64,000 nucleotides of DNA from a virus (lineage: Duplodnaviria; Heunggongvirae; Uroviricota; Caudoviricetes), in IMG/VR virus record IMGVR_UViG_3300027796_000011, positions 41,850 through 105,849 of that record; one strand, 5' to 3'. The notes under the pieces are model-generated. The model searched no databases. It was not told where the DNA came from and saw only the letters and a program-made list of their open reading frames with translations. Shown here in pieces: positions 5,674 through 63,694 of the stretch. The position numbers and the translations under genes were made by a program. Numbering within the stretch: the first letter of the stretch is position 1; each line of letters starts with the position of its first letter.

Positions 5674-5692
5674 GTACTTCCCCCCCCATTTG

Positions 5693-6790: not shown

Positions 6791-6821
6791 GTGCGTACCC
6801 TACACAGTCTTCTCTCTTTTG

Positions 6822-8059: not shown

Positions 8060-8062
8060 GGT

Positions 8063-9254: not shown

Positions 9255-9446
9255 GCACCCCTCCAAAAGTAGCAGTCCACTCCCCGTCCGTAAACAGGTT
9301 CTCCCAATCCCGCTGAAGTTCCAGGTACTTGTCGTGGTGCTGATTAAGCATGAAGCGACAGGCATCTGGTACTTTCGTAGACACCGCGCCAAGATACACA
9401 CACTTGAACAGTAAGTCAAGTTTTTTGTTCAGTATGTCCATTTTTG

Positions 9447-9653
9447 TCACGAGTTAAAGTCCTCGTAAACGGTATTGATAACATAGTCCATGAGTGCCGG
9501 GGTTTTGGCAACTATAGCAAGCGCGGCTATCTTAGCCATGTGTTCGGGAACCAAGTCCTCGTCCTGCATGGTAGGAAGATACATACGCATAGAGCCATCC
9601 GGGGACATCACCAGAGCCGCCTCATCCTCCCCACACTTCAGATCAATCGTCAT
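9447..9653 (-). CDS. hypothetical protein
   Basis: starts MTIDLK with ATGA overlap to the upstream gene. Confidence 0.3.
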   Translation of the reverse strand: MTIDLKCGEDEAALVMSPDGSMRMYLPTMQDEDLVPEHMAKIAALAIVAKTPALMDYVINTVYEDFNS

Positions 9654-41829: not shown

Positions 41830-44800
41830 TCAAAAAATCTGGGGTCGGCCTGTTCTGATCCTACGAACTTCTGTCCGTACCTCTTTCGTCTTCAACTGCT
41901 TCCCGCTGTTCACGGCCACTATCACATACGTTCCACCCGCCACGGCGTCTCCTACGTCCTTCCCACCCCCCTGTGGGTGGTCTGCCTTCTGCTTCTTCGG
42001 GTCGTACTTCAACTCTCGCAGTTCCTTCGTTAGTACAGGGTGGTCGGGAAGGATCAACCTGTCGTCACGTAGTCCCTGCTTCACTTCCATCCAGGGAGCC
42101 AAGTTCTTGTCCACAGAGACAATGGAACTCTTGATCTGAAACCCCCGATAATTCCTAAGTCTCCGCATACGTTGAAGCAGTGTGGCACTTTGAAACGTAT
42201 CCGATGTCACATAAATCAACGGAATCCAAGCGGCAATCAATTCAATCAAATCCCCGATCCTGTTAATGTCAATCTCATCGGACATGGGAGGAACGATCTG
42301 CAAGGCTCCATCAACAACAACCAGGGGCTTCTGCCCCGGAGTGGCCTCACGCACCTTCCCGGTTTTCTCATCGTAGTCGTAACTCTTCCCTACGTCCTTC
42401 CAGCCCCCCAAGTGCGTGACTGCCAATCCGGCACAGTCATTTGTCAAAGCCAAGTCCACATGAATCGCGTATTCATTCAAGGAATCAAGATAATCAGAAA
42501 TGTAGGTTTTGTCAAGTAGAAATTCAAGATTTTCAAAAGAATTTAAGTCTACCGAATCATGGGCGAACAGTTGCTTCCCGCTATATGCCTTGTGGTGGGC
42601 TTTAGTGGACCTGACAATAGATTCCCTGTCCTTGATGAACAGATTCACGCCACCCACCGGCACACCGGCTATATCACGGATAGCAGCATCTATATCACTC
42701 TGGAAATCGGGAAGGAAGTCCACAGGTACTTCAAGTACATCCTGAAGTTCTATCGCTTCCTCTTTGGATTGAATGATTCTGGAACGCCTTGTGTCATCCC
42801 CAACTTCAACCAGGAAGGTTTCATCAGAGAAAGTGCCTACCGGCTTGGCTTCCCACTGCGACAACGAGGAAAAGTAAATCGGGCAGGGAACACCCTTCGC
42901 CTTATAGTCATCAACCTCTGCTTTCTTGGTAGACACAAAGTCACCAGGATAGTGGGCCGAAGACATGATACACAACTTACCAGGAACCTTCCCGCGACGA
43001 TTGAAACGCGATTTGATACGTCTAGTGATGGTGCTGTAAAGTTTCTGTGCTTGGTTGTATTCTGCCTCCCCGGTGAACTTGGCCCTGGATGAGTTCTCAA
43101 TGTTCGCCATGAAGTTCACTTCGTCGAGACAATTATGTGCTATAAAAACACCGCTTCGTGCCTTTGCAAAAAACGCATGTGTATTAGGAACATTCTTCAG
43201 GTCATACACGGCACACTTTCTAAAAATAGGTTCAATCCCCATACACAAGACGGGTTGAAACCCTCTGCGAGTGCTTGGAACGTCACTTCTCTGACCTTCT
43301 CTCGAATAAGTTTTCGATACAACGCCCCCAAACCCATCTGCTGAAGAATTGCTTGCGTAACTAACCTGATGTTCTCTGTCTGACGTGCCGCAGTCATCTT
43401 TGTTAAAGTCTTTTCGTCTCGCAACCACAGGTTCCCCTTCACCTCGATAAGACCGAAAGATGTCTCGAAATCTGGTATATATATTTTCTTCTTCCCTTGA
43501 TATAGGTAAGGAAGCCTCTTGGACTCGTATTTGTATGGAATCACCAAGAAATCCAACCAAAAAGCAAACACCAACTCTAGTTTGGAAGCTAGTACCAATA
43601 AGGTGCCATCCGGGCGAAAATACCTCACCATCTTGCCACTGAACCCCGTCGCCAGAACAGCCTCCCTGCCCCGCATACAATGATATTCCATATTTGCTTT
43701 CTGCAATACGGACAACTTTAAGTACCGTTCCTTCGCGGCTAAAGACTTCGCGGCAGCATACTCCTGGTTCTGGTATAACTCTCGTAGTTTTGCAGGTCCG
43801 AGGTGCCGAACCTTCGCTATACCTCCGCGCAGGGCCTCTATAAACGCAGGGGCTTTTCTCTGCTCGTAAACATGCTCCCGTGCTTTTTCCGAACAAACCT
43901 CTGCAATGTCTTGCGCCTTCATTGTCGCTTTTGGAAATAGCTCCCGATACTTCGTAGGAGTCATGTTGTGTTTTTTCAAATGTGTCCCGGTTATCATACG
44001 CATCTCCGCACCGCACACTAGACACGGAACCAACTCCCCAGGAGATTTCCTTTTTCTCTGTGTCTCCATCATCTTCGGAGTACACAGTATCTCCCCTGGA
44101 AACATCTCCCGATACACCCTTCCAGTCATCGAATGTACGTTTTTCAAATGCTGTGTTAGATATGTAACCCGCGCTCCGCATATCTTGCATGTCAACAAAC
44201 TTAAAACACCTTCCTGGCATGTTTGAGGCTGCAATCCACTCACCGGAATCCTCCATAAACTTTTGGTCTTTAGTGCATATAATATGCTCTCCATTATCAA
44301 ACGAGACTTTATACAACTCCTTGTATCCAGTCAGTACGGACTCAACAGGACAATCAGTAGCCCTAATGACGGAACCCTCTACATCATAGGTTAAAACCGG
44401 AGAGCACCCCCCCGCATCCATGCGCACAAACGTACCATCGGAGGCAAGGTATTCTTGTTCTGGAGGAAAACAAGCAGTGAACACGTTCAAGCCCAAAGCG
44501 GACGTATCACCAGAAGCCACAGGCATGATGGTGACATCGCTCGGGAAACGGAGTTCCGTTGTAATGCTTTTGTCATACGGGAAATACTTCTGGAAGTACT
44601 CCCCCCGCCGTAGCATCTGGGAGAACTGATCGAACAGAACCTTTCTAGCAAGCGTCAGGCTCATGGATTGGAAAATCATGAAGATACTTGAGCCAGAAGA
44701 CAACCCGTACTCAAGTTGCGGGGTGTGGTAGCAAGACAGTTTATATAGCTGATACGCAAGAATTAACTGTGCGCGGAAGCTCTTACCAGAACCGATTGAG

Positions 44801-45180
44801 CCACCCAATACAACTTCTCTGATAATCGCTTCGTTTGGACCTTGAAAAATGTCATGCAATTCGGTTAACAGCATGGGCCACACCTGTCCACGAAGACCTA
44901 AAAAGAACGGGTCTTCAATGAACTGCACAATGGGAACAGGCTCCCACCGGAGTCCTGTCTTGGTTGTAAGTATGGAGTAGTCACCTGTCTGGATTGCCTT
45001 CCCGACTGATTGAAAGACCTTGGAGACTTCCTCAAGTTCAAGGAATCCATCCCCATCAGTCATGTAATGCAGCAGGGACTCTACCTCTTTCTCAACCAGG
45101 GGGCGGTGTTCTTTCGGGGTGTCCTCCAGAACCATGTCCATGCCTTCCAGGGCATCTTTTAACTTGATCTGGTCTGACAT
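41830..45180 (-). CDS. terminase large subunit precursor containing an intein
   Basis: Walker A GGSIGSGKS; intein begins CFPPEQEYLASDGTFVRMD (aa 237), block B-like TKDQKFMEDSGEWIAASNM, block F/G AVYDLKNVPNTHAFFAKARSGVFIAHN, +1 Cys directly precedes Walker B LDEVNF. Confidence 0.8.
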   Translation of the reverse strand: MSDQIKLKDALEGMDMVLEDTPKEHRPLVEKEVESLLHYMTDGDGFLELEEVSKVFQSVGKAIQTGDYSILTTKTGLRWEPVPIVQFIEDPFFLGLRGQVWPMLLTELHDIFQGPNEAIIREVVLGGSIGSGKSFRAQLILAYQLYKLSCYHTPQLEYGLSSGSSIFMIFQSMSLTLARKVLFDQFSQMLRRGEYFQKYFPYDKSITTELRFPSDVTIMPVASGDTSALGLNVFTACFPPEQEYLASDGTFVRMDAGGCSPVLTYDVEGSVIRATDCPVESVLTGYKELYKVSFDNGEHIICTKDQKFMEDSGEWIAASNMPGRCFKFVDMQDMRSAGYISNTAFEKRTFDDWKGVSGDVSRGDTVYSEDDGDTEKKEISWGVGSVSSVRCGDAYDNRDTFEKTQHDSYEVSGAISKSDNEGARHCRGLFGKSTGACLRAEKSPCVYRGPARRYSEGSAPRTCKTTRVIPEPGVCCREVFSREGTVLKVVRIAESKYGISLYAGQGGCSGDGVQWQDGEVFSPGWHLIGTSFQTRVGVCFLVGFLGDSIQIRVQEASLPISREEENIYTRFRDIFRSYRGEGEPVVARRKDFNKDDCGTSDREHQVSYASNSSADGFGGVVSKTYSREGQRSDVPSTRRGFQPVLCMGIEPIFRKCAVYDLKNVPNTHAFFAKARSGVFIAHNCLDEVNFMANIENSSRAKFTGEAEYNQAQKLYSTITRRIKSRFNRRGKVPGKLCIMSSAHYPGDFVSTKKAEVDDYKAKGVPCPIYFSSLSQWEAKPVGTFSDETFLVEVGDDTRRSRIIQSKEEAIELQDVLEVPVDFLPDFQSDIDAAIRDIAGVPVGGVNLFIKDRESIVRSTKAHHKAYSGKQLFAHDSVDLNSFENLEFLLDKTYISDYLDSLNEYAIHVDLALTNDCAGLAVTHLGGWKDVGKSYDYDEKTGKVREATPGQKPLVVVDGALQIVPPMSDEIDINRIGDLIELIAAWIPLIYVTSDTFQSATLLQRMRRLRNYRGFQIKSSIVSVDKNLAPWMEVKQGLRDDRLILPDHPVLTKELRELKYDPKKQKADHPQGGGKDVGDAVAGGTYVIVAVNSGKQLKTKEVRTEVRRIRTGRPQIF
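43132..44472 (-). other. intein (447 codons) within the terminase gene
   Basis: Cys1 at aa 237 and terminal HN at aa 682-683 in the terminase frame; the central part is kept stop-free but has odd composition. Confidence 0.7.
43197..44300 (-). CDS. +1-frame ORF nested in the intein: tandem Ros/MucR-type C2H2 zinc fingers + PD-(D/E)xK endonuclease
   Basis: CKICGARVTYLTQHLKNVHSMTGRVYREMFP and CLVCGAEMRMITGTHLKKHNMTPTKYRELFP (C-x2-C...H-x3-H-x-MT...YRE); C-terminal IYIPDFETSFGLIEVKG nuclease motif; the first ~40 codons of this span overlap the intein N-terminal splicing domain and are probably not coding. Confidence 0.55.
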   Translation of the reverse strand: MIMESILYALKTKSLWRIPVSGLQPQTCQEGVLSLLTCKICGARVTYLTQHLKNVHSMTGRVYREMFPGEILCTPKMMETQRKRKSPGELVPCLVCGAEMRMITGTHLKKHNMTPTKYRELFPKATMKAQDIAEVCSEKAREHVYEQRKAPAFIEALRGGIAKVRHLGPAKLRELYQNQEYAAAKSLAAKERYLKLSVLQKANMEYHCMRGREAVLATGFSGKMVRYFRPDGTLLVLASKLELVFAFWLDFLVIPYKYESKRLPYLYQGKKKIYIPDFETSFGLIEVKGNLWLRDEKTLTKMTAARQTENIRLVTQAILQQMGLGALYRKLIREKVREVTFQALAEGFNPSCVWGLNLFLESVPCMT

Positions 45181-46079
45181 TAGGACTCCTCCCCGCCAGG
45201 AAGCACATCAAGCACCAGGGGGCTTGTGGCAGGTTCCCGATCTACAGATTTGGTCTTGAGCCATCCCAACATGCGTTCCATCCCGGCCCCGACAGACTTG
45301 CGGGACTCTTCATCAAAGTTCTGGATGTACTTGTGGTAGGAGTTCCTTACGTTGTCAGCCAACTGTTCCTGCTGCGTCTTCAGAAGGTCAGCAGCAATCT
45401 GGAACTTGCCAAGCGTATCCCAAGTCTTACGAATGGAGTCCGCACAGGAGTCGATATCTTTCTCTGTTACCCCTAAATCCCCATCCATACTGCGCTTGAT
45501 AAGACCCTCAAAACGACGGTACTGCATCTTGATGAGGTTGTGTAACCCCCTGAACAGGTCATCATTGCTGTCATCAGCTAGGACTTGCTCCAGCACCTCG
45601 TCATAGGTGGCCGGTGTCTTTCGATCAAAATAGAGTTTCTTCGGTATGCCTTTTGTCTTTTCGGCTTCAATCTCCTTGGTGACTTCGATGATGACTTCTT
45701 CTGTAGGGAATTGGTACATCTCTTCAATCTCAAGAGAGTTATCACACACTCTTGCAAATCTACGGAGTTGCTTCTCCATCCCGCTACATTTCTCTTTCAG
45801 GTAGGTAATGACTTTAGCTGCGCTGTCCTCCCCCAACTTGGTGGCATTACGCATGGAACGTATGAACGTCACATCGTATTGGGTTGATTGGAGGATCGTG
45901 CCTATCAAGGCCAAAGCATGTCCGTCGATAGACGCCCTCCCGAAAATCTTCCAGCGAACAAGTCTATCTACCCCCTTGGATTGTCCCGCAGTCAATCCTT
46001 CCCTATCCTTACACCGCTCCTTAACCTCTTCCAGCATCTTCAACCGATAGTCGTGGTCTGACTTAGTAACTTCTGACAT
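45180..46079 (-). CDS. putative terminase small subunit / packaging-associated protein
   Basis: 299 aa gene immediately upstream of the large-terminase gene; assignment by position only. Confidence 0.3.
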   Translation of the reverse strand: MSEVTKSDHDYRLKMLEEVKERCKDREGLTAGQSKGVDRLVRWKIFGRASIDGHALALIGTILQSTQYDVTFIRSMRNATKLGEDSAAKVITYLKEKCSGMEKQLRRFARVCDNSLEIEEMYQFPTEEVIIEVTKEIEAEKTKGIPKKLYFDRKTPATYDEVLEQVLADDSNDDLFRGLHNLIKMQYRRFEGLIKRSMDGDLGVTEKDIDSCADSIRKTWDTLGKFQIAADLLKTQQEQLADNVRNSYHKYIQNFDEESRKSVGAGMERMLGWLKTKSVDREPATSPLVLDVLPGGEES

Positions 46080-47180: not shown

Positions 47181-48764
47181 TTAATTTGATCGAATCAGGC
47201 GAGTAATCCCGCCCAAGGCGTCCTTTGCCTCTTGCACCCTCACCGCTTTGACAGAGGAAACCGGGGTGGCCCGCCCCTCCATCCAACGACGGAAGGCGTC
47301 AATGTTCTCCTTGTCGGTCTTGGAAAGGGGCACCATCTTGGAAGCCACCAGGGTCAAGATGTCGGTGGTAACGTCCTGGTTGCCGTCAAACGCCACATAC
47401 AAGCCCTCATCAACCACGGCCTCGATCTCTGCCCCAACAAAGCCTTCCGTAGCAGCAGAGAGCCTTGTGAGGTCAAAGTTCGCTACTTCCCGCCCGCGCT
47501 TGCGGAGGTGAATCGAAAAAATCTGCTCACGCTCAAAGTCGGCGGGAAGGTCAACCGCAAACACCTCATCCCAACGTCCTTTCCGAAACATAGCCCCATC
47601 AAGATTCCGAATGGTGTTGCAGGTCGCAATCTTGTAAATAGGGGCCTTGGTTTCGCTCATCCAAGTCAGCAGACTTCCGATGACCCGGCTGGTGACACCA
47701 GAGTCCGATTTGCCAGAGGACTCCAACCCCGCCAGGAGCTTTTCGGCTTCGTCAATCAGCAGACAGGCAGGGGCAACCGTCTCCAAGAGGCTCAAGGCTT
47801 CCTTGGTGGCCTGTTCGCTGCTGCCAACCACCCCACGGAACAGCGCACCCACATCCAGCCGATACAGCGGCAGATTCAGCACGCTGGCAATCGTCTTGGC
47901 GGAAAGGGTCTTGCCGGTTCCGGGCTGGCCGACCAGCATCAGTCCCTTGGGGGGCTTCAAGCCAAAGTCCAGGGCACTACGGTGTTCCTCGAAATAGCGA
48001 CGGCGACGGCGAACGTGTTCCTTCAGGTTGTCGAACCCTCCCAACGTATCAAAGGACTCGTCAGTCGGCATGTACTCCAAAACACCAGACTGCTTGATAG
48101 CCAACTGCTTCTCTTTCCGCAGCAGGTTGATGTCCACCCCGCGACTGCCCACAATGGAAAGAGCCATCGCGTTTTCGGCTTTCAGTCTGGTGAGTCCAGT
48201 AGCATTTTCCGCAGCCTTTTCCAGCATGTCATCAGAGATATCCAGCCCCATCGCTTCCTTGTACGCCTCGGTGATGGACGAAAACAAGGTCTTGATCTCT
48301 TCCTTGGTGGGGAGGTCAAAGTCAATGAAGGTGATGACCTCTGACAACTCTTCAGGACACTCAAATGCCGCCCCGACAAAGATCACATGAGAACCCTTGG
48401 TACGGATGGCGTAGGCGGCATCCCGAAGGGCCTGCTTGGAAAACGGGTTGTTGTCAATGAACGCCTTGGGGTTGAAGACAATGTAAAGCCTGTTCTTGTG
48501 GGGCCACCCATCATCCGACGTGGAGATGTAGCGCATCAACTCCCCAAGTTCCGTAGTGTCCTGAATCCGGTCACTGACAGGATCATCAGACGCATACGGG
48601 TACAGTCCGGTAGTGACCTTCCAGACAAAGACATTGAGAGGTTCTTCCAACCCGGCATGTTCCACGTTATGGACAATCTCTTGGAGTGCCCTTTCCTGCT
48701 CCGTAGTCCTCACATACAGACACGGATACCCTGCCAGAATATACGATGAAATATCAAAAGCCAT
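47181..48764 (-). CDS. AAA+ ATPase
   Basis: Walker A LVGQPGTGKT, Walker B CLLIDEAEK, sensor and arginine-finger region ATCNTIRNLDGAMFRKGRWD. Confidence 0.65.
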   Translation of the reverse strand: MAFDISSYILAGYPCLYVRTTEQERALQEIVHNVEHAGLEEPLNVFVWKVTTGLYPYASDDPVSDRIQDTTELGELMRYISTSDDGWPHKNRLYIVFNPKAFIDNNPFSKQALRDAAYAIRTKGSHVIFVGAAFECPEELSEVITFIDFDLPTKEEIKTLFSSITEAYKEAMGLDISDDMLEKAAENATGLTRLKAENAMALSIVGSRGVDINLLRKEKQLAIKQSGVLEYMPTDESFDTLGGFDNLKEHVRRRRRYFEEHRSALDFGLKPPKGLMLVGQPGTGKTLSAKTIASVLNLPLYRLDVGALFRGVVGSSEQATKEALSLLETVAPACLLIDEAEKLLAGLESSGKSDSGVTSRVIGSLLTWMSETKAPIYKIATCNTIRNLDGAMFRKGRWDEVFAVDLPADFEREQIFSIHLRKRGREVANFDLTRLSAATEGFVGAEIEAVVDEGLYVAFDGNQDVTTDILTLVASKMVPLSKTDKENIDAFRRWMEGRATPVSSVKAVRVQEAKDALGGITRLIRSN

Positions 48765-49135
48765 TAGTTTCTCCCTCCCACTATCTAGGAATTAAAGAGT
48801 TTCCCAATCACCGGATTCGTTCATGTACTGCATCTCTGTACATCCGTAGTTGCTCATAGCCCAATCAAGCGGGGCGAACGCAACGTCCTCACTCCCATCA
48901 TAGATGTCCTTCTTGGAGATACTACCAAGGAAGTACACGTTACCATCATCATCCAGAAGTCGGAACATCGTGCAGTCTTTCAAGGAAGCCTCTTTGGCAT
49001 AATACCCCGTCCCAACTTCTGTGTTCCTGCCCGCTTCTGGAATCAAGCAGCCTGTGATTACCCATCCCATGTTCTTTCCCTCCCCGATTTGTTGAGAACA
49101 TCCTACCTGAATTTTCCAGGTTTTGTCAAGAGAAA

Positions 49136-50242
49136 TTATCCCTTGATGTTCAAGATGGGCTTGAAGTGATTCACAACGTCGATCACAATGCCCTGCTGCC
49201 GATCAATCACCTCTTCCAAGTTCTTGTAGGCCATCGGGGACTCATCCAGGGTATGCTTGGAGACAGACGCCACAATGCCGTGCATCTCTTCCTCAAACTG
49301 CTCCACAGTAAATGCCTCCTTGGCCTTGGAACGACTCATCGTCCGTCCAGCCCCGTGAGAAGACGAGCACAGATAGTCCTCATTTCCAAGACCCTGCACG
49401 ATGTAAACCCCATCCCGCATGTTGCCGGGGATGATGCCGTACTGCCCCGCCATAGCCGGGGTGGCTCCCTTCCGGTGCAGAATACCGTCCTCAAGAATCT
49501 GTGCGTAGTTGTGAGGAACATCAATCACCAACTCCTCTTCAAAACCTATTTCAAACTCCCCCTCCTCAAAAAAATCCTCAAGAGACTCAATAACAGCCTC
49601 CAACATAGACAGGCGGTTGGTCACAGCCCAATCCACAGCAAACCGCATATCCTCATAGTATGCCCTTCCCAGGAGAGAATCGAATGCAAACCACTTTTCC
49701 CTCTTGAGGTAATGGGTACAGATACGGTGCCCCAAGTTACGAGAGCCAGAATGGATTGTGACTCCAACCTCTTTGGTAGCCGCAGACACCCCAAACTCAA
49801 TGAAGTGGTTTCCAGAGCCAAGCGTTCCTAACTGCGCGTACTGGTTGGCACGAACCTCTTCATCCAAGTCCTTATCTCCAAGGGATGACTTGAAGTCCCC
49901 AATCTCGCTGTTAGAGAACCTTCCAGTTCCCGTGGGGATATTTTTATGGATGGTATGAAACAGCCCAAGCAGATCAACATGCTCGAAAAAGTCCTCTTGG
50001 GAGATGCCGAGAGGGTAATGCAGCACGCCGCATCCGATGTCATAGCCAACGTAGCTAGGGGAGATGACGTTATCGAGGAGAGCCACCCCGCCAATGGGCA
50101 TGTCGTAGCCCGTATGACAGTCAGGCATGATAGCCACCCTCTTCACGAAGTCCAATGCAGCCACCTTCTCGATCTGATCCAGTGCTGAAGACTCAATATC
50201 CGCAATAGGCAGCATAAACGAAACCTTATCAAACTTTCCCAC
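49136..50242 (-). CDS. rtcB: RtcB-family RNA 3'-phosphate/5'-OH ligase
   Basis: MPDCHTGYDMPIGGV, DIGCGV, GSGNHFIEF, GAGR match the RtcB metal- and GTP-binding motifs. Confidence 0.8.
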   Translation of the reverse strand: MGKFDKVSFMLPIADIESSALDQIEKVAALDFVKRVAIMPDCHTGYDMPIGGVALLDNVISPSYVGYDIGCGVLHYPLGISQEDFFEHVDLLGLFHTIHKNIPTGTGRFSNSEIGDFKSSLGDKDLDEEVRANQYAQLGTLGSGNHFIEFGVSAATKEVGVTIHSGSRNLGHRICTHYLKREKWFAFDSLLGRAYYEDMRFAVDWAVTNRLSMLEAVIESLEDFFEEGEFEIGFEEELVIDVPHNYAQILEDGILHRKGATPAMAGQYGIIPGNMRDGVYIVQGLGNEDYLCSSSHGAGRTMSRSKAKEAFTVEQFEEEMHGIVASVSKHTLDESPMAYKNLEEVIDRQQGIVIDVVNHFKPILNIKG

Positions 50243-50256
50243 AACAACCTCCTAGT

Positions 50257-50634
50257 TTACAGGTACAAAGCACCCACATGCCAGTCTATAGCTCCAAGGA
50301 CCAGTTTAAGGCCTTGCTCAAGAGCATCAGCAGACAACACCAAGTCTTCTGTAAGTCTAGTGCGAAACATTTTAGGATATTCAGGCGCGTACACAGCGGT
50401 ATAAGTGTTTCCAAGAATAAAGCAATAATGGAATGAGGAGTCCATCCCACCAACAACAAAAGATACTGGCACCCTAAAGGTATTTTTAATAAACGGGGCC
50501 AGAACCTCCCCAGGAGCGTCTTCCACAGTAAAAACACCGAACTCTTTCAGGTTAAGTTCCTTGCATATACCACGAACTTCCTCCTCCTCCAAAACAAATC
50601 CAAAGAAAACAAAAGCCTTAGCGTCCATTCCCAT
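50257..50634 (-). CDS. hypothetical protein
   Basis: conserved leader GGGAGGGAACTAAC ATG. Confidence 0.35.
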   Translation of the reverse strand: MGMDAKAFVFFGFVLEEEEVRGICKELNLKEFGVFTVEDAPGEVLAPFIKNTFRVPVSFVVGGMDSSFHYCFILGNTYTAVYAPEYPKMFRTRLTEDLVLSADALEQGLKLVLGAIDWHVGALYL

Positions 50635-50783
50635 GTTAGTTCCCTCCCGATCAATTTGTTGTTGGGGAGATATTACCACTTTTTCTGGGTTTGTCAACAA
50701 AAAAGTTGAGGGCAGGACTTCTCCCACCCCCAACTCGTTAGAACTACTTAAAATGTTTTTGAAATTGACTTCAGAAATTCTAG

Positions 50784-51452
50784 CTAATCCATCAGCGGGG
50801 AGATGATCTCCCCCCACAACTTGTACCCTTCCAGGCTCAAATGAAGCCCATCTGTCGTCAGGTGAACCTTCATGTTGTTACCCTCCCCAACAAAATGAGA
50901 GTATAGATCGACAAACGTAAACGTCTTGATTTGTTTGGCATACGCAGCTAGGAGCAGGTTCGTCTTCGCTATCTGTGCCTTGTCCCGATGGTGCGTAAGC
51001 GTAAACCCTGTATGCACGGGCAGGATGCTCTGCACATAAACCTTCGTGCCTATGCTGTAGAAAGCGTTAGCAATCATCAAGATGTCCTGAACAACTCTGT
51101 CTGCGGCCTCTTGCGTTCCCCACCCGAAATTGTTGGTGCCTATCAAAAGGAACAGTTTCTTCGGATGCTCTTTTAACAGATCATACTGGCGGGCCAGCAC
51201 CCCAAGCGTAGTGTCACCAGATATACCACGATTCACCACATCCTTCTGAACAAAGTACTCAGCATAATTTGACTGCCCTTCGGTCACAGAATCTCCAACC
51301 AGAATGATTTTTCCAGTAGTAGGGTGACACCTGTACTCGTCCACCTTCTGTATGTAGTAGTCAGAAAAGGGCGGGAGGGCTTCCTTAACAGTCGCCTCCT
51401 TCCCGAACAACGCCATAATCCACACAACTATCTTCTGTAGCAGTTCTTTCAC
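50784..51452 (-). CDS. SGNH/GDSL-family hydrolase (second copy)
   Basis: GTG start after GGGGAGGAAGCAA; ILVGDSVTEGQ block I; TTDGLHLS block V. Confidence 0.55.
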   Translation of the reverse strand: MKELLQKIVVWIMALFGKEATVKEALPPFSDYYIQKVDEYRCHPTTGKIILVGDSVTEGQSNYAEYFVQKDVVNRGISGDTTLGVLARQYDLLKEHPKKLFLLIGTNNFGWGTQEAADRVVQDILMIANAFYSIGTKVYVQSILPVHTGFTLTHHRDKAQIAKTNLLLAAYAKQIKTFTFVDLYSHFVGEGNNMKVHLTTDGLHLSLEGYKLWGEIISPLMD

Positions 51453-51475
51453 TTGCTTCCTCCCCGAATTTGAAG

Positions 51476-52057
51476 TTAATTTCGGAAATTCCAAGACTGT
51501 TGCATTTCCGTCAGGAACCTTCCGTTATATGCCTTGAATTTCTCACGAAACTTGCTGCGCTTGGCATCGAGTTCTTCTGCCGGGGCCAGGGTGTGCCTCC
51601 CCAAAAGTGCCAAGGTAAAGCCGTCAGCTTCATCCCCATTGGCTACCGGCATCCCCCAAAAGTCTCGTATGGCAACCCTAACCTCTTTCTTGTCTGCTGA
51701 TGCCTTCCCGGTTGCAAATCCCTTGAGTATATTCGGCTCTGCCAACAGGAACGGGAGGCCAGTAATTTTCGGGATGGAGTGCTTTAAGTAGCCCATCATC
51801 TCCAGTCTATCAGCAGCATTACCTAACACTCCATACAATGCTGCTCTTGAGATGTCTTCAAAGACTACTACATCTCCTGGTTGAATAATGTTGAGTACCC
51901 CTTCCACCCCGATTTTTTGACGTTCCCACGACGTTTTATCTGGTTTGGTCGGGAGGGATAACGACGCAGTTTCATTCCTACCAAGGTCTATGATACCAAC
52001 CCCCGGCCTTGCCAACGAGATATCCAACCCAATGAACCTCATAGCATCAGCCTTCAT
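51476..52057 (-). CDS. RuvC-like Holliday junction resolvase
   Basis: FIGLDISLARPGVGII (RNase H-fold motif I), VVFEDISRAAL, GDEADGFTLALLG. Confidence 0.5.
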   Translation of the reverse strand: MKADAMRFIGLDISLARPGVGIIDLGRNETASLSLPTKPDKTSWERQKIGVEGVLNIIQPGDVVVFEDISRAALYGVLGNAADRLEMMGYLKHSIPKITGLPFLLAEPNILKGFATGKASADKKEVRVAIRDFWGMPVANGDEADGFTLALLGRHTLAPAEELDAKRSKFREKFKAYNGRFLTEMQQSWNFRN

Positions 52058-52380
52058 CTCCACTCTCCAGAGAGTCCAGCCAATCGAACTCCACATCTGT
52101 AGCCCAATTATACTTATTTGTAAGAAACTCTTGAAACTCTGCTCCCAACTCAGTGACATCCATATCAACCAACACTCCTTTCACAGGCACCTCTACACGC
52201 TCACCCATCAAAGTGACAATGTTCACCAATTTAAGGTGTTTCGCTGTCCCATAGCAATCCTTTATTGTATGTTCCAAACCCATACTTTTAGCAGGGATGT
52301 TCAACTTCTCAATGGCTACAACAACATTCTCACCCCAACCGATATACAACTTGCGCCCAACGATATCCCATTTCACACAG

Positions 52381-53739
52381 TTAGTCCTCATAATTATCCA
52401 CCATTTCAATACGTTTCCCGAGCCAACGCATTACGTTAACCGCCATTGAATTTCCCGACGCCTTATACCTTAGGCCATCAGGGCAATTCTCTGCGGGCTT
52501 ATTACGCCAAGGGATGGCGGTGTAGCTGTCTGGGAATCCCTGTAGTCTTTCGCACTCTGTTGGCGTCAGTCGGCGGACTTGGTAGGGGGGCTGGAATATC
52601 TTTGGCGTATTCCGCCCCGTCGCATTGGAGTTCGTGCCGATGGACGGGCAGTGAGGCGTCACAAGGACATCGCCGGATTGATTCTGGGTAAAGGCCACAG
52701 CCTGATACCCGTTCGCACCTAGAGCGTGAGCGCGGTTGTACCCTACAATGGGGTCTTGCGTAGCATGAACGCACAGTGTTTCACTTTCAAAATCTAGGCG
52801 CTGTTTAGTAGTAGTAGTAGTAGTAGCAACGTCTATAGATACACAACAACCACCACCAAAAGCACCTACTATATAAGAACCGTTATCAAGACAGTTCCTA
52901 ACTTTAGCCCCTAAAGGCCCAGATACCGTGGGGGAATGCCATAGGACATCTTCTCTAAGGCACTCCGCAATCTCGGCGGCAGCTACAATGCCTACTACAT
53001 GGGGCTGCGCTTGATCCAGCGTGTGAGTACACTCTTCACTTATTCCCCATCCGTTACTTGAGGTGTTCGCGCTCCTTCTGCCAAAGCTGTGTGTAGCATT
53101 GGAGGCAACGCTTTCCCCCGTTTTTCTGCACGGCGCAGAATCCCGGCGCACGCCTTCGCGCTCAAAAAGAATCTCTCTGGGATCGGCCCCGTCTCTAGGA
53201 CATGCGACAAGAAAGACACGCTTGCGCCGTTGTGCCAGACCGAAATATTGGGCGTCGAGGCATCTCCACGCGATTGCTCTTTCGGGACCAAGCACGAAAC
53301 CAGCGTCCGTCCATTTTCCCCCTGGAGGGAGGAGCGGACCATCTTCTCCGGCCAATGCGCCAAGTAGGCATCCGAAAGCGTTTGTTTTGTCGGACAAGAC
53401 TCCTGGCACGTTCTCCCATACTGCATATCTTGGACAAGATTCATTCACTATCCTCGCATATTGTAAAGTCAGGTTTCCACGGTCATCATTAAGTCCTTCC
53501 CTCAATCCTGCCACAGAGAAGGCTTGGCAAGGGCTACCACCAACAAGTACATCAATCCCTCTAAAGGCGTTCCCGTCAATCTGTGTAGCATCCCCAAGAT
53601 TAGGAATATTCGGGTGATGGAACTTCAACACTTCACAAGGGAAAGGGTCAATCTCTGAAAACGCTACAGGTTCCCACCCCAAACCCTTCCAAGAAACACT
53701 TGCAGCCTCTATTCCAGAAAACAAAGAAAGGTATTTCAA
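52381..53739 (-). CDS. DNA (cytosine-5)-methyltransferase
   Basis: motif I LSLFSGIEA, motif IV GGSPCQAFSVAG, motif VI AVWENVPG; variable region contains a (AGT)6 repeat encoding TTTTT. Confidence 0.8.
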   Translation of the reverse strand: MKYLSLFSGIEAASVSWKGLGWEPVAFSEIDPFPCEVLKFHHPNIPNLGDATQIDGNAFRGIDVLVGGSPCQAFSVAGLREGLNDDRGNLTLQYARIVNESCPRYAVWENVPGVLSDKTNAFGCLLGALAGEDGPLLPPGGKWTDAGFVLGPERAIAWRCLDAQYFGLAQRRKRVFLVACPRDGADPREILFEREGVRRDSAPCRKTGESVASNATHSFGRRSANTSSNGWGISEECTHTLDQAQPHVVGIVAAAEIAECLREDVLWHSPTVSGPLGAKVRNCLDNGSYIVGAFGGGCCVSIDVATTTTTTKQRLDFESETLCVHATQDPIVGYNRAHALGANGYQAVAFTQNQSGDVLVTPHCPSIGTNSNATGRNTPKIFQPPYQVRRLTPTECERLQGFPDSYTAIPWRNKPAENCPDGLRYKASGNSMAVNVMRWLGKRIEMVDNYED

Positions 53740-53742
53740 AAT

Positions 53743-53925
53743 CTAACCCTCGTATCGGTCACGGGTGCTGTAGAATCCTTCCCCCTTCAAATGAAAATTC
53801 TGGGTGGACAACTGCCGGTTTGCATCCCCACCACATCGTGGGCAGGGAGAAAACAGTACGTTCATTGGAGTCAATTCCTCAAACTCATGCTTGCATCTCG
53901 TACACTTCCATTCATATAATGGCAT
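53743..53925 (-). CDS. FmdB-family zinc-ribbon protein
   Basis: MPLYEWKCTRCKHEFE...CPRCGG. Confidence 0.5.
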   Translation of the reverse strand: MPLYEWKCTRCKHEFEELTPMNVLFSPCPRCGGDANRQLSTQNFHLKGEGFYSTRDRYEG

Positions 53926-54221
53926 AGGTTCTTGCCCTCCCGCCTAGTGGTATTGATCCAAAACACGAACACTATTCAAACCAAACAAGTATCTGCCGTC
54001 TTTTTGCTTCCCGAAAGAACTCATAGTCCAGAAGATAGTAGGATTGACCTCCGTCTCACATAGAGCATTTACGTCTTCTTCTGTCCTACCGTTTGCGTTG
54101 CAGACCTTACAACCCCACCCGGTGATAGCGGATAGGGTTGTAGGTACATGCTCTGAGGTTATCTCCGTTGCATCCCCACAATTCATGCAAATGACTACCA
54201 ATACATCTGCTTTGTGCATGG

Positions 54222-55139
54222 CTACGCCTGTATGGGAGTGGGTCTGGTTGACTGCACATCCATAAGGTACACCTTGTGTGCATATGTCCCATCATCGTAG
54301 ATATCAAAAACGACACATCCTGTATCTACAACGCCAGAGCATTGAGAGGCACCGTATATGGTGGACGGACCTTGCAGAGAGGGGAGGACCACACCGCGCC
54401 AACCTCTAGAAGCAGATTCATCGTAGTAGTGGACATGGCTACGAAGCATGATGTCTGCTTTGGGGGAGTAGTTGCGTTCATTCCACAAGATGTTCCAGAC
54501 ACGTTCTTTCTTGATGGCGGTTGCCCTCCCCCACGGGACAGAGGAACCACCTATCTTGTGCTTCACATCGAAGACCACCCCGTTCACATCCACCCACTCG
54601 TGACTTCCCACCCGCCCCTTGACGGCTTCGGCTACCAACTGCTCATAGTTGGTGAAGTCCTTCCCATTCACATGGTATGGGGTGCCCCTGGTGAACACGT
54701 TGGTTCTAGCGTCAATGAACTTGGCAATGTGAATCGCCATATCCGCCTGTTCTTTGAGGTCTGTGGTGGTCTGCTCCACCCCGCCAGACTTGTCACCCTT
54801 CCCGTCAATCAGATCACCGTTGCCGATCAGGACATCAATGGGTTGGATTTTTGAAATCAACTGCGAAAACCAATCCCACATTTCCACCTGAAGGTCAGCA
54901 TACATACGCTTCTTCTGGTCCGCTTCCTCATGCGGGGTGGATTGCCAAGGAGGCGGGGTTAGCCCCGCACGATGCCCACAATGCCAATCACCGGTAGCCA
55001 GTACCCGTTTGAAGGTTCCACGCTTATGACGGGCAAACAACCCCTGGAACGTAGACCACGGCATGTCCGTATGCCTCCATGCTTCCCGAACCTGACCACC
55101 AAACTCCTGCACCAAGTCAAAGACCTCTTTAGGCGTCAT
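54222..55139 (-). CDS. calcineurin-like metallophosphoesterase
   Basis: LATGDWHCGH, IGNGDLIDGKG, HVHYYD motifs. Confidence 0.55.
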   Translation of the reverse strand: MTPKEVFDLVQEFGGQVREAWRHTDMPWSTFQGLFARHKRGTFKRVLATGDWHCGHRAGLTPPPWQSTPHEEADQKKRMYADLQVEMWDWFSQLISKIQPIDVLIGNGDLIDGKGDKSGGVEQTTTDLKEQADMAIHIAKFIDARTNVFTRGTPYHVNGKDFTNYEQLVAEAVKGRVGSHEWVDVNGVVFDVKHKIGGSSVPWGRATAIKKERVWNILWNERNYSPKADIMLRSHVHYYDESASRGWRGVVLPSLQGPSTIYGASQCSGVVDTGCVVFDIYDDGTYAHKVYLMDVQSTRPTPIQA

Positions 55140-55749
55140 CTCTGGTATCCTCCCCGACTAAAATCTTGATCTTGCGTTCACACTGCTTGACCACCTCTCC
55201 AAACGAGTACATATGAGTCGGGATGGTCAGGAACAGACGATGCTTGTACTTGTACGGCAAATTCTCATACACAGCCCGTCTGCGATTCCAAAGAGCCTCA
55301 TCCACCATCTCATAACGATCAGGAGTTCCAAACTCCAACGTACTCATGCGCTCCCTGGCCGTCTTGTAATCCGCATCCAAGATGATCGTCAGAGGCGGGG
55401 TGGGAATCAGATTCTTCAACGCAGCATCCATAGCAGCATACTCAAGGGTCTTTCCCATCCCAGATGTTTCAATCTGGTACACATAGGTGCTGTCCGGCCC
55501 ACGATCAGCCAGATACACAACATCCATCTCCATGTTGTCCATCGTATGACGCATATCCGCCATGAAGAACAAGCATGAAGCCACTACACTCATGTCAGTA
55601 TCAGGGTCCAGCAACGTCTGGCGTACCAGTTTCCCAACTGACGTTTGACCAGGAAATCGAACAGACTGCCAATGCGGGTTGCGAGACATCAACTCCCGAA
55701 TAACGGTAGTCTTACCAGAGCCATCAACACCTTCAAACGTAATCAGCAT
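55129..55749 (-). CDS. tmk: thymidylate kinase
   Basis: ITFEGVDGSGKTT P-loop, RFPGQT (cf. REPGGT), LADRGPDSTYVYQ (cf. DRHDLSTQAYQ). Confidence 0.75.
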   Translation of the reverse strand: MLITFEGVDGSGKTTVIRELMSRNPHWQSVRFPGQTSVGKLVRQTLLDPDTDMSVVASCLFFMADMRHTMDNMEMDVVYLADRGPDSTYVYQIETSGMGKTLEYAAMDAALKNLIPTPPLTIILDADYKTARERMSTLEFGTPDRYEMVDEALWNRRRAVYENLPYKYKHRLFLTIPTHMYSFGEVVKQCERKIKILVGEDTRDDA

Positions 55750-56406
55750 CTATTCAATCTCCCTGTATATGTCTCTACACGATTCAAGTTCTTCCCTTGT
55801 AAACAACTCCCTAAGTCTGCCTATTGCCATACTAACGCGCAAGCATACGGCCTGCTTCGTAGTGCCTATCTCCTCCCCAATCATTCTGTAGTTTTTCTCT
55901 TGATGAAAGTACGCATCCAACAATTCTTTATCCTCTTCGGATAACAACTGTAACTTACAGCTCACTATAGCATAAAACCTTTGAAGTTCAAGTTGCTTAT
56001 CCGTAGTTTCTTGAGGGTCAAGACAACTACGCTCATTTAATGTGGTAGCCCCCTGAGTGTACCCATACAACTTTGTCAACTCATTAGCTACTGACTGCGC
56101 GATAGCCTTACGGATGTAAACAGTAAACTGCCCTATCTCCATTGAAGGCATGTTACGCAAGGCGACCATCACACCTAAAGCAGCCTCCCCCATACAAGAG
56201 TTTATCCAATCGTCCTTATCCACCCCAAAAATCTTAGATGTCTTATTGTAGGCATCAGTGCCCACACAGTTTTTGAAACGCCTCCAAACCTTATCCGCTA
56301 CAATCTTGAGTCGTGCATCAAACTCTTCCTTCGGAATATAACTCTTCTCCAACAGGAAGGGCTTTATAACCTCTTCAAACTCTTTCTTGTATGCTTCCTG
56401 TTTCAT
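55750..56406 (-). CDS. phage-encoded sigma-70-family sigma factor
   Basis: C-terminal region-4 HTH YRMIGEEIGTTKQAVCLRVSMAIGRLRE; region-2-like segment upstream; start MKQEAYKK. Confidence 0.6.
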   Translation of the reverse strand: MKQEAYKKEFEEVIKPFLLEKSYIPKEEFDARLKIVADKVWRRFKNCVGTDAYNKTSKIFGVDKDDWINSCMGEAALGVMVALRNMPSMEIGQFTVYIRKAIAQSVANELTKLYGYTQGATTLNERSCLDPQETTDKQLELQRFYAIVSCKLQLLSEEDKELLDAYFHQEKNYRMIGEEIGTTKQAVCLRVSMAIGRLRELFTREELESCRDIYREIE

Positions 56407-56407
56407 G

Positions 56408-59221
56408 CTAGCCACACGTTGTATAGCCGCAGGACAGGCAATGCCCACAACCATTCTCATATACATACGTTTTCTTACCACACTCTGTGCAGACCGCCCC
56501 CAACTCCTGTTCAATAATCTCCGCTTCTTCAGCATCCACTTCGGGCAGGTAAGTCCGAAGAATACGGGCAATCACCGCAGAGGCGTCCACCAGGGAATAA
56601 CTGCCCTTATCCAACTGCTTGATGACATACTCAAGCGGGATTCCGCTCCGCAGAAGAAGGCTCACCAAACGAGTGATCGTCTCCCACAGAGCATATTTCT
56701 CATTGAAGACGGCTTCGCTATACACACCGCCCCCGTTGATGCCAGCTTCGCGGGGCAGTTTCGCAAAGACTTCAACCGGGATGTCATCATCATCCAGGGA
56801 CACGATGATATACATCTTGGCACCCTTCCAAAGAACCCGGTGGCGTCTGGCCCGCTCCACTTCCAACAGATCACGGATCACCACGGACGGGAGGGCCAAC
56901 GTGTCTTCATCTTCATGCTTCTCAGTCTTCATGCTGGAAGAGGAGTCTTTAGAAATCAGAACACCGTCTTTGCACCCATCCCGAAAAACAGTGATGCCCT
57001 TCAAGCCCTTACCCCAGGCTTCGTAGTAGATATCTTCCATCTGCTCCGCAGTAGCCTCGCGGGGAAGGTTCGTCGTAGAACTGATAGATGCAGAGATATA
57101 CTTCTGAATAGCCGCCTGTACGGCAATACGGTCAGAAGGACTCACAGCATCCGCTTCAACATAACTCAGACTATCCCGCAACTCTTCCAGAGTCATGTTC
57201 TCGTACTTGGAAGGGTTGGACTCCACATGATCCAGAGCAGGGCCGTGGACACAATTAACCAGCGTATCAGAGAGGCGGGTGGCCCGCTGGTAGGAGAACT
57301 TGAAAATAGGCTCAATGCCAGAGGAACAATTCCCGGCCATGATACTGATGCTACCACAGGGGCCAACAGTGTTAAACCCAACATTCCGTAAACCATGTTG
57401 AACGATCTTTAACCTGAGTTCCGTATCCAAATAAAGATTCTTCACAAACAACGAATTGCAGAATCGAATACGTGCATCCGGGTCATTGAAAGCATCACAA
57501 CACCCAAAGTTATGAGCCAAGTCACACGAGGCATACAGTTGCTTAACTATCATCGCTTTTGTCAGTTGCGAACAAAAACGAAGAGAATCGTCACTACCAT
57601 ACTTAATGCCAAGCATTGCTAGTGCGTCGGCCAGCCCGGTGAACTCCAACCCAATACGTTTGCCAAACCTGTCAGCGTCCCGCTGTTCTTGAAGTGGGTG
57701 CTTGCTCATATTGATATCAGACATCGTATCCAGAAACAACGTAGCATCCCACACAGCGTCCTCAAAGCCTACCCAATCAAAACGGGCACTGTCCGTCCAA
57801 GGGTTAATCACAAACTTATGTAGAACCAGGGCGGCTAAAAGACAATTATTCCAATACCCTAGTGGCTGTTCGCCGCATTGCCCCGTGATAATACCAGTAG
57901 CCAACGCGATTTTATGTGTTGTAGGGATAGTACAGCAGTAGACAGTATGCTCTCCAGGTAGACACTCTATACTGCGGATGATCCCCCGATCACTATGCAC
58001 GCCTCTCGGATAACATGAGTCAAGAGCATCCCCAGGCTTCAGTTCTTTTGCCTGAAGTTTACTTCCGTCTTCCAAGTACATCGTATGGTACGGAGTCACA
58101 TCAATATAAGGGTCTTCCCGGAAGTGAATACGAAGAAGTTGCTGCCCCTCCCCCGTCACACGGAAGTTATTACATTGAACCCACGCGTTACCATCGAAAA
58201 CAGTGACTTCCTTCCCGACCAAATCCTTAATGGGGGTTGGACCGTTAGAGGTGGCAATCAACGTGTCACCACTGAAACAAGGATTAGTTCCCATAGGAAC
58301 CAACGACTCATGTACCGCAGAAGCAGGGTCTTCCTGCTGAACCCTGTCAATGAAGAGCATCCCCGGATCACCACATGACCAGTTCGCTTCGCAGATGTCT
58401 TTGAAAATTTCGCGGGCAGGAACCTTCCCAAAACTTTTGACCGGATAGCCATTCTTCAACCACGCATCATAGTTGCCATCCCACTCTTTGTTGTAGAGTT
58501 CTTTGTTGGCTTCAATGTCAGGGAAGATAAACTCCCACTCTTCATCGTTCTCATACGCATTCATGAAGTCATCTGTAACTTTGAGGCTGATGTTGGCCCC
58601 AGAGATATCAGGAACCCTACCCGTAAGGTTGTCCTTCCCGAAAACCCGCTCCGGGTTGGCCTTCGACCAAATGAAGTCCAAAGCATCTGGATGCCGGATG
58701 TCCAGGGACACAAGAAGTGCGCCGCGCCTCCCGTTCTGTCCGATGGTCTGTGTGACCTCAGAGAAGAGAGGCATGAAGGACACCGCACCAGAGGATGTCT
58801 TAGCAGCATTATCCACAGAAGAACTTTTAGGGCGCAAGATGGTGATATCCGTCCCGCAGCCCCCCCGCAGGGCGTAAGTGCGAGACATCTTCTTCTGTGC
58901 TTCAAAGATGCCTTCCAGGGAGTCTTCCTCGATCTTGATGAGGTAGCAGTTGGACAATGAGCAGCGGACTTCTGTGTTGCCAAGTCCGTAGAGAATAGAA
59001 CCAGCAGGGATGAACTTTCCATCCCGCAAAAGTTTAGCTATGGAGTCATCCTCTTCTGAGGAGTACTTGGAGACTTTGGTGAACTCCTGCACAACCCGCT
59101 CAATTACGTCGTCAAAAGACGATTCTCCTTGATGACAATACTTCTTCTGGGCGACCATACTGATGAAATCTTCCCGGTCTTTCAACCCGACTTCAATATC
59201 TTTCTTGGTAATGTGCGACAT
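56408..59221 (-). CDS. ribonucleotide reductase (probably class II, NrdJ-like) containing a mini-intein
   Basis: GTNP|C...|CGEQP: the active-site NPCGE is interrupted; C-terminal CTECG...CGHCLSC zinc ribbon; no glycyl-radical motif. Confidence 0.7.
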   Translation of the reverse strand: MSHITKKDIEVGLKDREDFISMVAQKKYCHQGESSFDDVIERVVQEFTKVSKYSSEEDDSIAKLLRDGKFIPAGSILYGLGNTEVRCSLSNCYLIKIEEDSLEGIFEAQKKMSRTYALRGGCGTDITILRPKSSSVDNAAKTSSGAVSFMPLFSEVTQTIGQNGRRGALLVSLDIRHPDALDFIWSKANPERVFGKDNLTGRVPDISGANISLKVTDDFMNAYENDEEWEFIFPDIEANKELYNKEWDGNYDAWLKNGYPVKSFGKVPAREIFKDICEANWSCGDPGMLFIDRVQQEDPASAVHESLVPMGTNPCFSGDTLIATSNGPTPIKDLVGKEVTVFDGNAWVQCNNFRVTGEGQQLLRIHFREDPYIDVTPYHTMYLEDGSKLQAKELKPGDALDSCYPRGVHSDRGIIRSIECLPGEHTVYCCTIPTTHKIALATGIITGQCGEQPLGYWNNCLLAALVLHKFVINPWTDSARFDWVGFEDAVWDATLFLDTMSDINMSKHPLQEQRDADRFGKRIGLEFTGLADALAMLGIKYGSDDSLRFCSQLTKAMIVKQLYASCDLAHNFGCCDAFNDPDARIRFCNSLFVKNLYLDTELRLKIVQHGLRNVGFNTVGPCGSISIMAGNCSSGIEPIFKFSYQRATRLSDTLVNCVHGPALDHVESNPSKYENMTLEELRDSLSYVEADAVSPSDRIAVQAAIQKYISASISSTTNLPREATAEQMEDIYYEAWGKGLKGITVFRDGCKDGVLISKDSSSSMKTEKHEDEDTLALPSVVIRDLLEVERARRHRVLWKGAKMYIIVSLDDDDIPVEVFAKLPREAGINGGGVYSEAVFNEKYALWETITRLVSLLLRSGIPLEYVIKQLDKGSYSLVDASAVIARILRTYLPEVDAEEAEIIEQELGAVCTECGKKTYVYENGCGHCLSCGYTTCG
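57878..58279 (-). other. mini-intein (134 aa) in the RNR, ending in Gln
   Basis: begins CFSGDTLIATSNG (block A), TPYHTMYLEDGSKLQAKELKPGDAL (block B), HTVYCCTIPTTHKIALATGIITGQ followed by the +1 Cys of NPCGE. Confidence 0.65.
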
Positions 59222-63199: not shown

Positions 63200-63694
63200 T
63201 CAAGATAAAAAATCGCCTGCTGACTTAGCAAACCAGTGACGGCACAGGTCGGGTAGGAGCAGCAGTCTATCCTCCCCGATCATGCTCAATGCCTTCTTGA
63301 ACTTACGCTTCCCGCCTCCCCGCCAGACACCCTTCACTTCCAGAAACAGTCCTGACTTCGGGAGGTAAAAATCCGCCGTGTACGAGTGAACTCCGTCTAT
63401 ATCCAACACTACCGATTCGTACTCGTACTCCCACCCCAAATCAAACTTCATTGTCTCTGCTACTATGCCTTCGTAGTTCGACCTGAACGCTTGGTTTAGT
63501 CTTGGGAACCAGATGTCACCAGGAGCCAGCCCGCTTGTAACCTTACTGCACTTGGTGGGAAGGCCCACATGGCGGGAAGTACGCACATACTCCACAAAGC
63601 AATTAAAAGAACAGAAAGCGGGACAGTCCACCTGGAGGTAGGATAAATCCTTTACGTTGAAACCTATCCCACCCCCACACACAGCACACAACAT
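63200..63694 (-). CDS. free-standing PD-(D/E)xK endonuclease related to the terminase-intein ORF
   Basis: DFYLPKSGLFLEVKG compares with IYIPDFETSFGLIEVKG; N-terminal CAVCGGG Cys cluster. Confidence 0.45.
   Translation of the reverse strand: MLCAVCGGGIGFNVKDLSYLQVDCPAFCSFNCFVEYVRTSRHVGLPTKCSKVTSGLAPGDIWFPRLNQAFRSNYEGIVAETMKFDLGWEYEYESVVLDIDGVHSYTADFYLPKSGLFLEVKGVWRGGGKRKFKKALSMIGEDRLLLLPDLCRHWFAKSAGDFLS

Follow-up and report, generated by a model that had tools for sequence, protein, structure and literature searches.

The large terminase gene in a 64,000-nucleotide (nt) stretch of an uncultivated tailed phage (Caudoviricetes; positions 41,850 to 105,849 of IMG/VR record IMGVR_UViG_3300027796_000011), here termed the window, very probably carries within its Walker B motif a contiguous class 1-like intein whose centre holds a complete and independently translated homing endonuclease gene in the +1 frame. 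The terminase precursor is encoded on the minus strand, as are all features of this region, by a single open reading frame (ORF) of 1116 codons plus stop (41830..45180). This one frame comprises an N-extein of 236 amino acids (aa) that ends in ...ALGLNVFTA, the Walker B strand (44473..45180), an intein of 447 aa from Cys1 to Asn447 (43132..44472) and a C-extein (41830..43131) whose first residues, CLDEVNF, are the +1 Cys and Walker B. Six terminase homologs that lack the intein (666–740 aa; precomputed Pfam family PF27249, MJ0330_N) match the exteins on either side and leave a gap of exactly 447 residues between ALGLNVFTA and CLDEVNF, and this clean gap places the insert inside the Walker B motif. 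A first-pass annotation, made from the DNA letters without database searches, had assigned an intein to 43132-44472, which is exactly the segment missing from these homologs, and the motifs that it read in the terminase frame, CFPPEQEYLASDGT, TKDQKFMEDSGEW and AVYDLKNVPNTHAFFA..GVFIAHN followed by the +1 Cys and LDEVNF, are present where it placed them. The closest terminases (47–50% identity to that of the window) are without the intein, and those that bear it are 33–40% identical, a sporadic distribution that is compatible with homing or with repeated loss. Identical DNA is found in the JGI contig Ga0066602_10000549 and the identical protein is encoded on five contigs, while a megablast search of the terminase against GenBank phages gave no matches.

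The nested gene was listed as an ORF of 367 aa (44300..43197) within the terminase ORF (45180..41830), and its offset of 880 nt from the terminase start puts it in frame +1. This frame is open from 44330 to 43199 and elsewhere in the terminase gene is stopped every ∼60–90 nt; the third frame of the terminase gene contains 86 stops. Initiation at TTG 44300, as first annotated, was not borne out. The homologous protein P0012 begins with MSGLRQKK..., which aligns with residues 20 onward of the listed ORF (VSGLQPQT), and this N-terminal alignment makes GTG 44243 the likelier start. The gene so defined (43197..44243) has 348 codons plus TGA, residue 2 of P0012 aligning at this start, and 6 nt upstream of the GTG there is a Shine-Dalgarno sequence, GGAGG (44250..44254). 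Neighboring phage genes use ribosome-binding sites of the GGAGG type at the same spacing.

The product of the nested gene contains two Ros/MucR-type zinc fingers, a helical linker and a TnsA/Vsr-like PD-(D/E)xK nuclease. Finger 1 (CKICG...HLKNVH...FP) is encoded at 44097..44189, where it shares nucleotides with the last strands of the N-terminal HINT lobe (FKFVDMQDM), and finger 2 (CLVCG...HLKKH...FP) at 43932..44024. Both of the fingers claimed in the first-pass annotation were therefore found, although the H-x3-H spacing that it gave them applies only to finger 2, finger 1 being C-x2-C-x9-H-x4-H. In an alignment of 28 sequences C74, C77, H88 and H92 of finger 2 are nearly invariant, and the predicted zinc ligands of the fingers are conserved. 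The nuclease core (43344..43634) includes S220, E223, D258 and E267-V-K269; among the same 28 sequences E223 and D258 do not vary at all, and E267 and K269 scarcely do. The PD-(D/E)xK assignment made from the +1 translation is thus supported by conserved catalytic residues and also by an AlphaFold2 (AF2) model built from the 28-sequence alignment, in which the mean pLDDT (predicted local distance difference test) score is 85 and that of the core exceeds 90. Profile searches with both frames, as had been suggested, gave a match of the +1 product to Pfam ROS_MUCR (PF05443) over two stretches (E 3e-12, 47.1 bits vs. a cut-off of 25.4) and a weak match to Phage_endo_I, while the terminase-frame centre of the intein has no match in Pfam.

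Relatives of the nested endonuclease were not readily found. A word-indexed protein search with the nested ORF gave no matches, as is to be expected when gene callers skip nested ORFs, and no relatives were seen in two scans of metagenome contigs and one of genome contigs. Scans of viral sequences, in which the window ORF and the HINT N-lobe served as queries, gave nothing, or only the contig L003 described below, and one profile search gave only distant proteins that share the zinc fingers. An exhaustive HMMER search of 1.8 billion representatives, however, yielded 332 relatives of the nested product. The three best (P0011–P0013; 318–347 aa, E 1e-35 to 6e-42) align over their full length and are all nested in the same manner, and a fourth relative was obtained by a back-translated pattern scan of IMG/VR. 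In L003 (IMGVR_UViG_3300037067_013705) the terminase ORF spans 5055-8564, the intein 5772-7103 and the nested gene 5995-6981, and in L014 (Logan SRR29078109) a terminase ORF of 1117 aa (5115-8468) contains an intein at 5748-7055 and the nested gene for P0011 at 6001-7044. The contigs L002 (ENA, 1088 bp) and L015 (Logan, 1755 bp) each have one frame that is open throughout and encodes the HINT N-lobe, with L015 also encoding the C-lobe, its junction ...GKN/CLDEVNFF and the C-extein; P0012 and P0013 are the products of their respective +1-frame genes. The nested offset is +1 in all four of these close relatives, whose endonucleases are 32–38% identical. Two more distant terminases, L017 (P0008) and L019 (P0010), have an intein one residue further along Walker B with a different nested +1 gene (L017:1968-3455 and L019:3234-4019), which encodes NUMOD3-like repeats and one or two PD-(D/E)xK-like cores. 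Together with the window this gives seven nested cases, drawn from JGI, IMG/VR, ENA and Logan. Free-standing relatives of the nested endonuclease are also known, namely gp123 of Bacillus phage vB_BceM-HSE3 and a homolog (L016) that adjoins a GmrSD gene.

That the terminase frame remains open across the nested gene is not expected by chance. The centre of the intein in this frame (43258..44169) consists of ∼300 stop-free and poorly conserved codons for a sequence rich in G, S, R, V, D, and E. When the nested gene was shuffled 5000 times among synonymous codons, keeping its protein and codon usage, 17.1–17.7 ± 2.9 terminase-frame stops were expected and the lowest number in any shuffle was 7, yet the window has none (Poisson P(0) ∼2e-8), so that the original judgment of such an open stretch as very unlikely by chance stands. 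In the third frame over the same gene, 29 stops are observed and 29.6 expected. The host frame is likewise without stops in all of the relatives, against expectations of 15.4 (L003), 11.6 (L014), 15.0 (L002), 9.3 (L015), 16.8 (L017), and 4.7 (L019), while the free-standing control L016 has 5 stops in the equivalent frame vs. 7.8 expected. The stops in L016 rule out the notion that the endonuclease family is in general pre-adapted with an open alternative frame. The means by which the frame is kept open is straightforward, since at the +1 offset every host-frame stop is T/AA, T/AG, or T/GA, where the T is the third position of an endonuclease codon. In the five nested genes of the close family (the window, L003, L014, L002, and L015) pooled, T is found at the third position before AA, AG, or GA codons in 0 of 463 cases vs. 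312 of 1195 elsewhere. As any NNT codon can be exchanged for the synonymous NNC, codon choice alone can keep the host frame open and leave the endonuclease protein unaffected.

A codon alignment of the same five genes gives nucleotide identities of 0.52, 0.58, and 0.36 at the first, second and third positions of the endonuclease codons, and the same columns, when translated, give amino acid identities of 0.40 for the endonuclease frame and 0.215 for the host frame. The codon-position values indicate protein-level selection on the endonuclease frame, and the host-frame centre appears mainly to be kept stop-free. As no more than 36% of third positions are identical, the freedom from stops must have been preserved through extensive divergence. 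Host-frame identity is, however, not uniform, since it is 0.43 over the first 20–30 nested codons and 0.08–0.28 in the centre. In the former region the first zinc knuckle (LLTCKICG) and the last conserved strands of the HINT N-lobe (FKFxDMQDM) share nucleotides, and this segment of finger 1 is genuinely dual-coded. At the other end, the 3′ part of the nested gene overlaps blocks F and G, its last 20 codons in the window sharing nucleotides with the HINT C-lobe, and in L014 the nested stop lies 11 nt before the end of the intein. As judged from sequence comparison, these patterns demonstrate selection both against host-frame stops and on the nested protein. Codon usage as such was less informative. 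The rare codons noted earlier in the host-frame centre are indeed enriched in the case of ATA and CGA, as is the phage-rare AGA, but TTA hardly is, and the codon adaptation that had been recommended as a check on each frame does not separate them (endonuclease 0.63, host 0.62, third frame 0.62).

The regions flanking the centre of the intein are assigned to a HINT N-lobe (44170..44472), which contains blocks A and B and is conserved in all five members of the family, and to a HINT C-lobe (43132..43257), which contains blocks F and G (...VYDLKNVPNTHAFFA...GVFIAHN). This assignment rests in part on how precisely the insert fits the gap in the intein-less homologs and on the splice-junction residues, namely Cys1, Asn447 and the +1 Cys, which the window shares with L003, L014, and L015 wherever the ends are available. 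Against the canonical mini-intein that P0009 carries at this site, a profile of the mini-intein gave an hhalign probability of 93.7% (E 1.9e-7), and its top matches among structures in the Protein Data Bank (PDB) are all solved inteins, but these are weak (E 0.005–0.1). Several findings weigh against the proposed arrangement. The HINT assignment is based on motifs and sub-threshold profile matches, with Pfam Intein_splicing reaching only E 6e-4, under its gathering score, and the AF2 model of the intein, from a shallow alignment, has a pLDDT of 27.5 and is uninformative on both the HINT fold and disorder in the centre. The block B-like segment identified previously is present, but a Gln occupies the canonical His position (T-K-D-Q; 44275..44264), and T-x-D-Q without the His is found in all five members of the family. 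The penultimate His is found only in the window, the other inteins ending in SN or KN, and the class 1 combination of block B T-x-x-H and a penultimate His is thus absent from the family. L014 and some candidate starts have at best a weak motif resembling a Shine-Dalgarno sequence. Finally, the first appearance of the stop-free state is a difficulty for the proposal, as a newly arrived insert would be expected to bring 10–17 host-frame stops with it. As to the missing His residues, natural inteins that lack the block B His or the penultimate His are known. Their absence here suggests that activation of the N-terminal splice junction may be atypical in this family, and an atypical splicing chemistry is not an argument against an intein.

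In the proposed mechanism, ribosomes in the terminase frame would pass through the endonuclease gene out of frame, making ∼300 residues of poorly conserved filler, and all 447 inserted residues would afterwards be cut out by the two HINT lobes, with ligation of the terminase. Other ribosomes would initiate at GGAGG-N6-GTG (44243) to yield the 348-residue endonuclease, which presumably cuts intein-less terminase alleles during co-infection. The intein and its endonuclease could thereby be copied into the intein-less allele as one unit. The element would have originated when a mini-intein was invaded by a free-standing endonuclease gene. Splicing, internal initiation and cleavage specificity are each predicted from the gene arrangement, while the core of the initial proposal, that of a contiguous intein with an out-of-frame endonuclease gene and a host frame that is held open, is upheld by seven +1 cases with no host-frame stop in any of them.

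Four other explanations were considered. The first is that both frames are functional in the centre, the ∼300 host-frame residues forming a domain or linker that, for example, tunes splicing or binds nucleic acid. This is improbable. The host-frame centre is always translated within the precursor, the first 20–30 overlapped codons are conserved in both frames, and a similar G/S/R/E-rich composition is seen in all five members, but this shared composition arises because a K/E-rich gene is read one base out of frame. Moreover, the low identity of the centre and its lack of a Pfam match do not suggest a domain, its indels differ between relatives, and the least conserved nucleotide, the third position of the endonuclease codon, is the first position of the host codon.

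The second explanation is that of a decaying relic, in which the nested gene is a pseudogene or the intein does not splice and is tolerated as a loop, as has been proposed for the ShiLan insert (2025, PMC11855218). The absence of the block B and penultimate His residues from the intein family would fit such a relic, as would the low codon adaptation of the nested gene (0.63 vs. 0.68–0.83 for phage genes). Yet none of the seven cases has a broken endonuclease frame, its catalytic and zinc-binding residues are conserved, its conservation pattern is of the coding type, and the splice-junction residues (Cys1, terminal Asn, +1 Cys) are retained wherever the ends are available. An unspliced insert of 447 residues in the Walker B strand of an essential ATPase would also be unlikely to be tolerated. 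A relic is consequently quite improbable.

It is less probable still that the endonuclease is produced by programmed ribosomal frameshifting, which the first-pass annotation had listed in the form of two shifts, into the +1 frame and back, and which might also occur once to give a fusion of N-extein, HINT N-lobe and endonuclease. Such a shift is possible in principle in the window, where 29 stop-free codons of the +1 frame precede the GTG. However, a double shift does not need an open host frame, which is nevertheless found in all seven cases, and in four relatives (L014, L002, L017, and L019) the +1 frame is closed by a stop no more than one codon before the nested start, so that an upstream shift is sterically impossible and internal initiation is favored. 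In addition, homologs reported as free-standing begin at the equivalent residue and the GGAGG-N6 start is present. An Rfam scan of 42500..45500 (E ≤ 0.1) gave nothing and so indicated neither a frameshift element nor a group I or group II intron; an intron, in any case, would not need an open frame.

The last explanation, also raised at the outset, is that an ordinary in-frame intein endonuclease was put out of frame by two compensating indels (sequencing or assembly errors, or recent mutations), and although in a single sequence no artefact would be simpler than a switch of frame near each junction, this can be dismissed with near certainty because it predicts ∼17 host-frame stops in the centre where there are none, because the +1 arrangement recurs in seven contigs from different samples and assemblers, because the divergence of third positions shows the stop-free state to be old, and because each end of the nested gene lies over conserved HINT strands, where the same nucleotides are needed in two frames.

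A separate, out-of-frame endonuclease gene inside an intein is an architecture already known from other inteins, and what differs here is the nuclease family, the DNA-binding module and the +1 sense frame. In actinobacteriophage inteins, including those of terminases, the endonuclease is encoded in a separate frame ("frame 3," for a gene resembling endonuclease VII) or on the antisense strand (for genes of the LAGLIDADG or VSR-like type), and such elements are proposed to have arisen when a free-standing endonuclease gene invaded an intein (Gosselin, Arsenault and Gogarten, bioRxiv 10.1101/2025.01.02.630785). Like the window element, they are contiguous inteins with an out-of-frame endonuclease between the splicing blocks, an open extein frame and free-standing relatives. 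Unlike them, the element described here has a TnsA/Vsr-like PD-(D/E)xK nuclease with two Ros/MucR fingers, encoded on the sense strand in frame +1, and it occurs in an unrelated terminase family, of the MJ0330_N type, in uncultivated phages other than actinobacteriophages and over a deeper divergence (∼35% identity). An out-of-frame LAGLIDADG endonuclease was also described for the Synechocystis DnaX intein (Gorbalenya, 1998, as cited in the preprints). For the cyanobacterial dnaX intein, purifying selection on the endonuclease frame and relaxed selection on the intein frame have been reported, and secondary invasion of a mini-intein was proposed (Phillips, DeSimone and Gogarten, bioRxiv 10.64898/2026.09.14.751524). 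The overlapping ORF inside an intein and the frame-specific pattern of selection are shared with the window, but dnaX has a cellular host, its endonuclease is of the LAGLIDADG family and the frame is another one (a +2 ORF in one preprint, antisense in the other).

Two further types of system are similar in part. In fractured genes, a free-standing gene encoding a GIY-YIG or Vsr-like PD-(D/E)xK endonuclease lies between the halves of a split intein (Dassa et al., 2009, PMC2677866). As in the window, the endonuclease is translated separately at the usual position within an intein, the hosts are phage genes, a terminase gene among them, and the 3′ end of the endonuclease gene overlaps the downstream part of the intein. 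Fractured genes, however, split the host into two ORFs whose products splice in trans, whereas here the terminase frame is continuous over all 1116 codons. In the ShiLan insert, too, an endonuclease gene that starts with GTG is nested out of frame in a host frame that is stop-free, but this insert has no splicing domain and is thought to stay in place as a loop, while the insert in the window is flanked by HINT lobes and splice-junction residues. At the protein level the nested nuclease is only 15–24% identical to TnsA, Vsr, and I-Bth0305I, which have neither its N-terminal Ros/MucR fingers nor its long helical linker.

One of the close relatives shows both outcomes of the association between endonuclease and intein within a single terminase gene. 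In addition to the nested element, L003 has a second intein near the C-terminus of the terminase that is split, or fractured (8400-9590). The terminase ORF stops at 8564 within the N-intein (..DHPAHG/CHSGDTEV..), a free-standing HNH/AP2-like gene follows at 8624-9328, and a short ORF (9309-9590) encodes the C-intein (..GPFVHN/SKDVSDA..) and the last part of the terminase. The more distant L017 and L019 terminases also carry further inteins, in their case with in-frame HNH or LAGLIDADG domains, and the portal gene next to the L019 terminase has an intein as well.

These results extend inteins with out-of-frame endonucleases, a class of mobile element that has come to be recognized only of late, beyond actinobacteriophages and cyanobacteria to large uncultivated phages, and add a new type of nuclease to them. 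The avoidance of T at the third position of nested codons before AA, AG, or GA provides a quantitative signature by which more cases can be found. This is of practical value, as such elements are systematically missed by gene callers, which either hide the endonuclease or chop up the terminase. The record of the window holds only the long terminase ORF, leaving the nested endonuclease hidden. The automatic call for L014:6001-8468 split the terminase into a nested endonuclease of 347 aa and a C-terminal fragment of 466 aa, the latter called from a GTG inside Walker B, and the N-terminal 886 nt were not called at all. The intein also apparently tolerates ∼300 residues of unselected filler, which bears on intein engineering and on models of how endonucleases and splicing domains become associated. 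A further and rather doubtful reading is that nesting in the +1 frame is a stable third state, in addition to the in-frame fusion and the fractured state, and that the filler may have a role of its own, such as a tether or in the timing of terminase maturation. If this were true, the +1 frame would be favored because its host-frame stops can be removed by silent T-to-C changes. The basis for a stable third state is that seven cases from two endonuclease families are all in +1 and have persisted over deep divergence; against it, only two independent origins have been sampled and the published cases use other frames.

The window also encodes a free-standing protein of 164 aa (63200..63694, minus strand), which is rich in Cys in its N-terminal region and shares its nuclease core with the nested endonuclease. 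The kinship between the two that was proposed in the first reading is seen at the profile level (hhalign 96.5%, E 8e-10) but is not significant by BLASTP. This protein matches the PHROG families annotated as "endonuclease" and "Holliday junction resolvase," and may represent either a further mobile endonuclease or a phage resolvase.

The phage itself is large, as the identical terminase is found on a contig of at least 106 kb. Two regions of the window (47181..59221 and 10097..11272) encode a ribonucleotide reductase (class II-like, containing a TSCPD domain), an RtcB RNA ligase, an RlaP-like nucleotidyltransferase, PhoH, ThyX, MazG, and an AAA ATPase. The RtcB gene (49136..50242) was examined for an interruption and nothing unusual was seen. 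The closest named homolog of the terminase is from a metagenome-assembled genome of the Victivallales.

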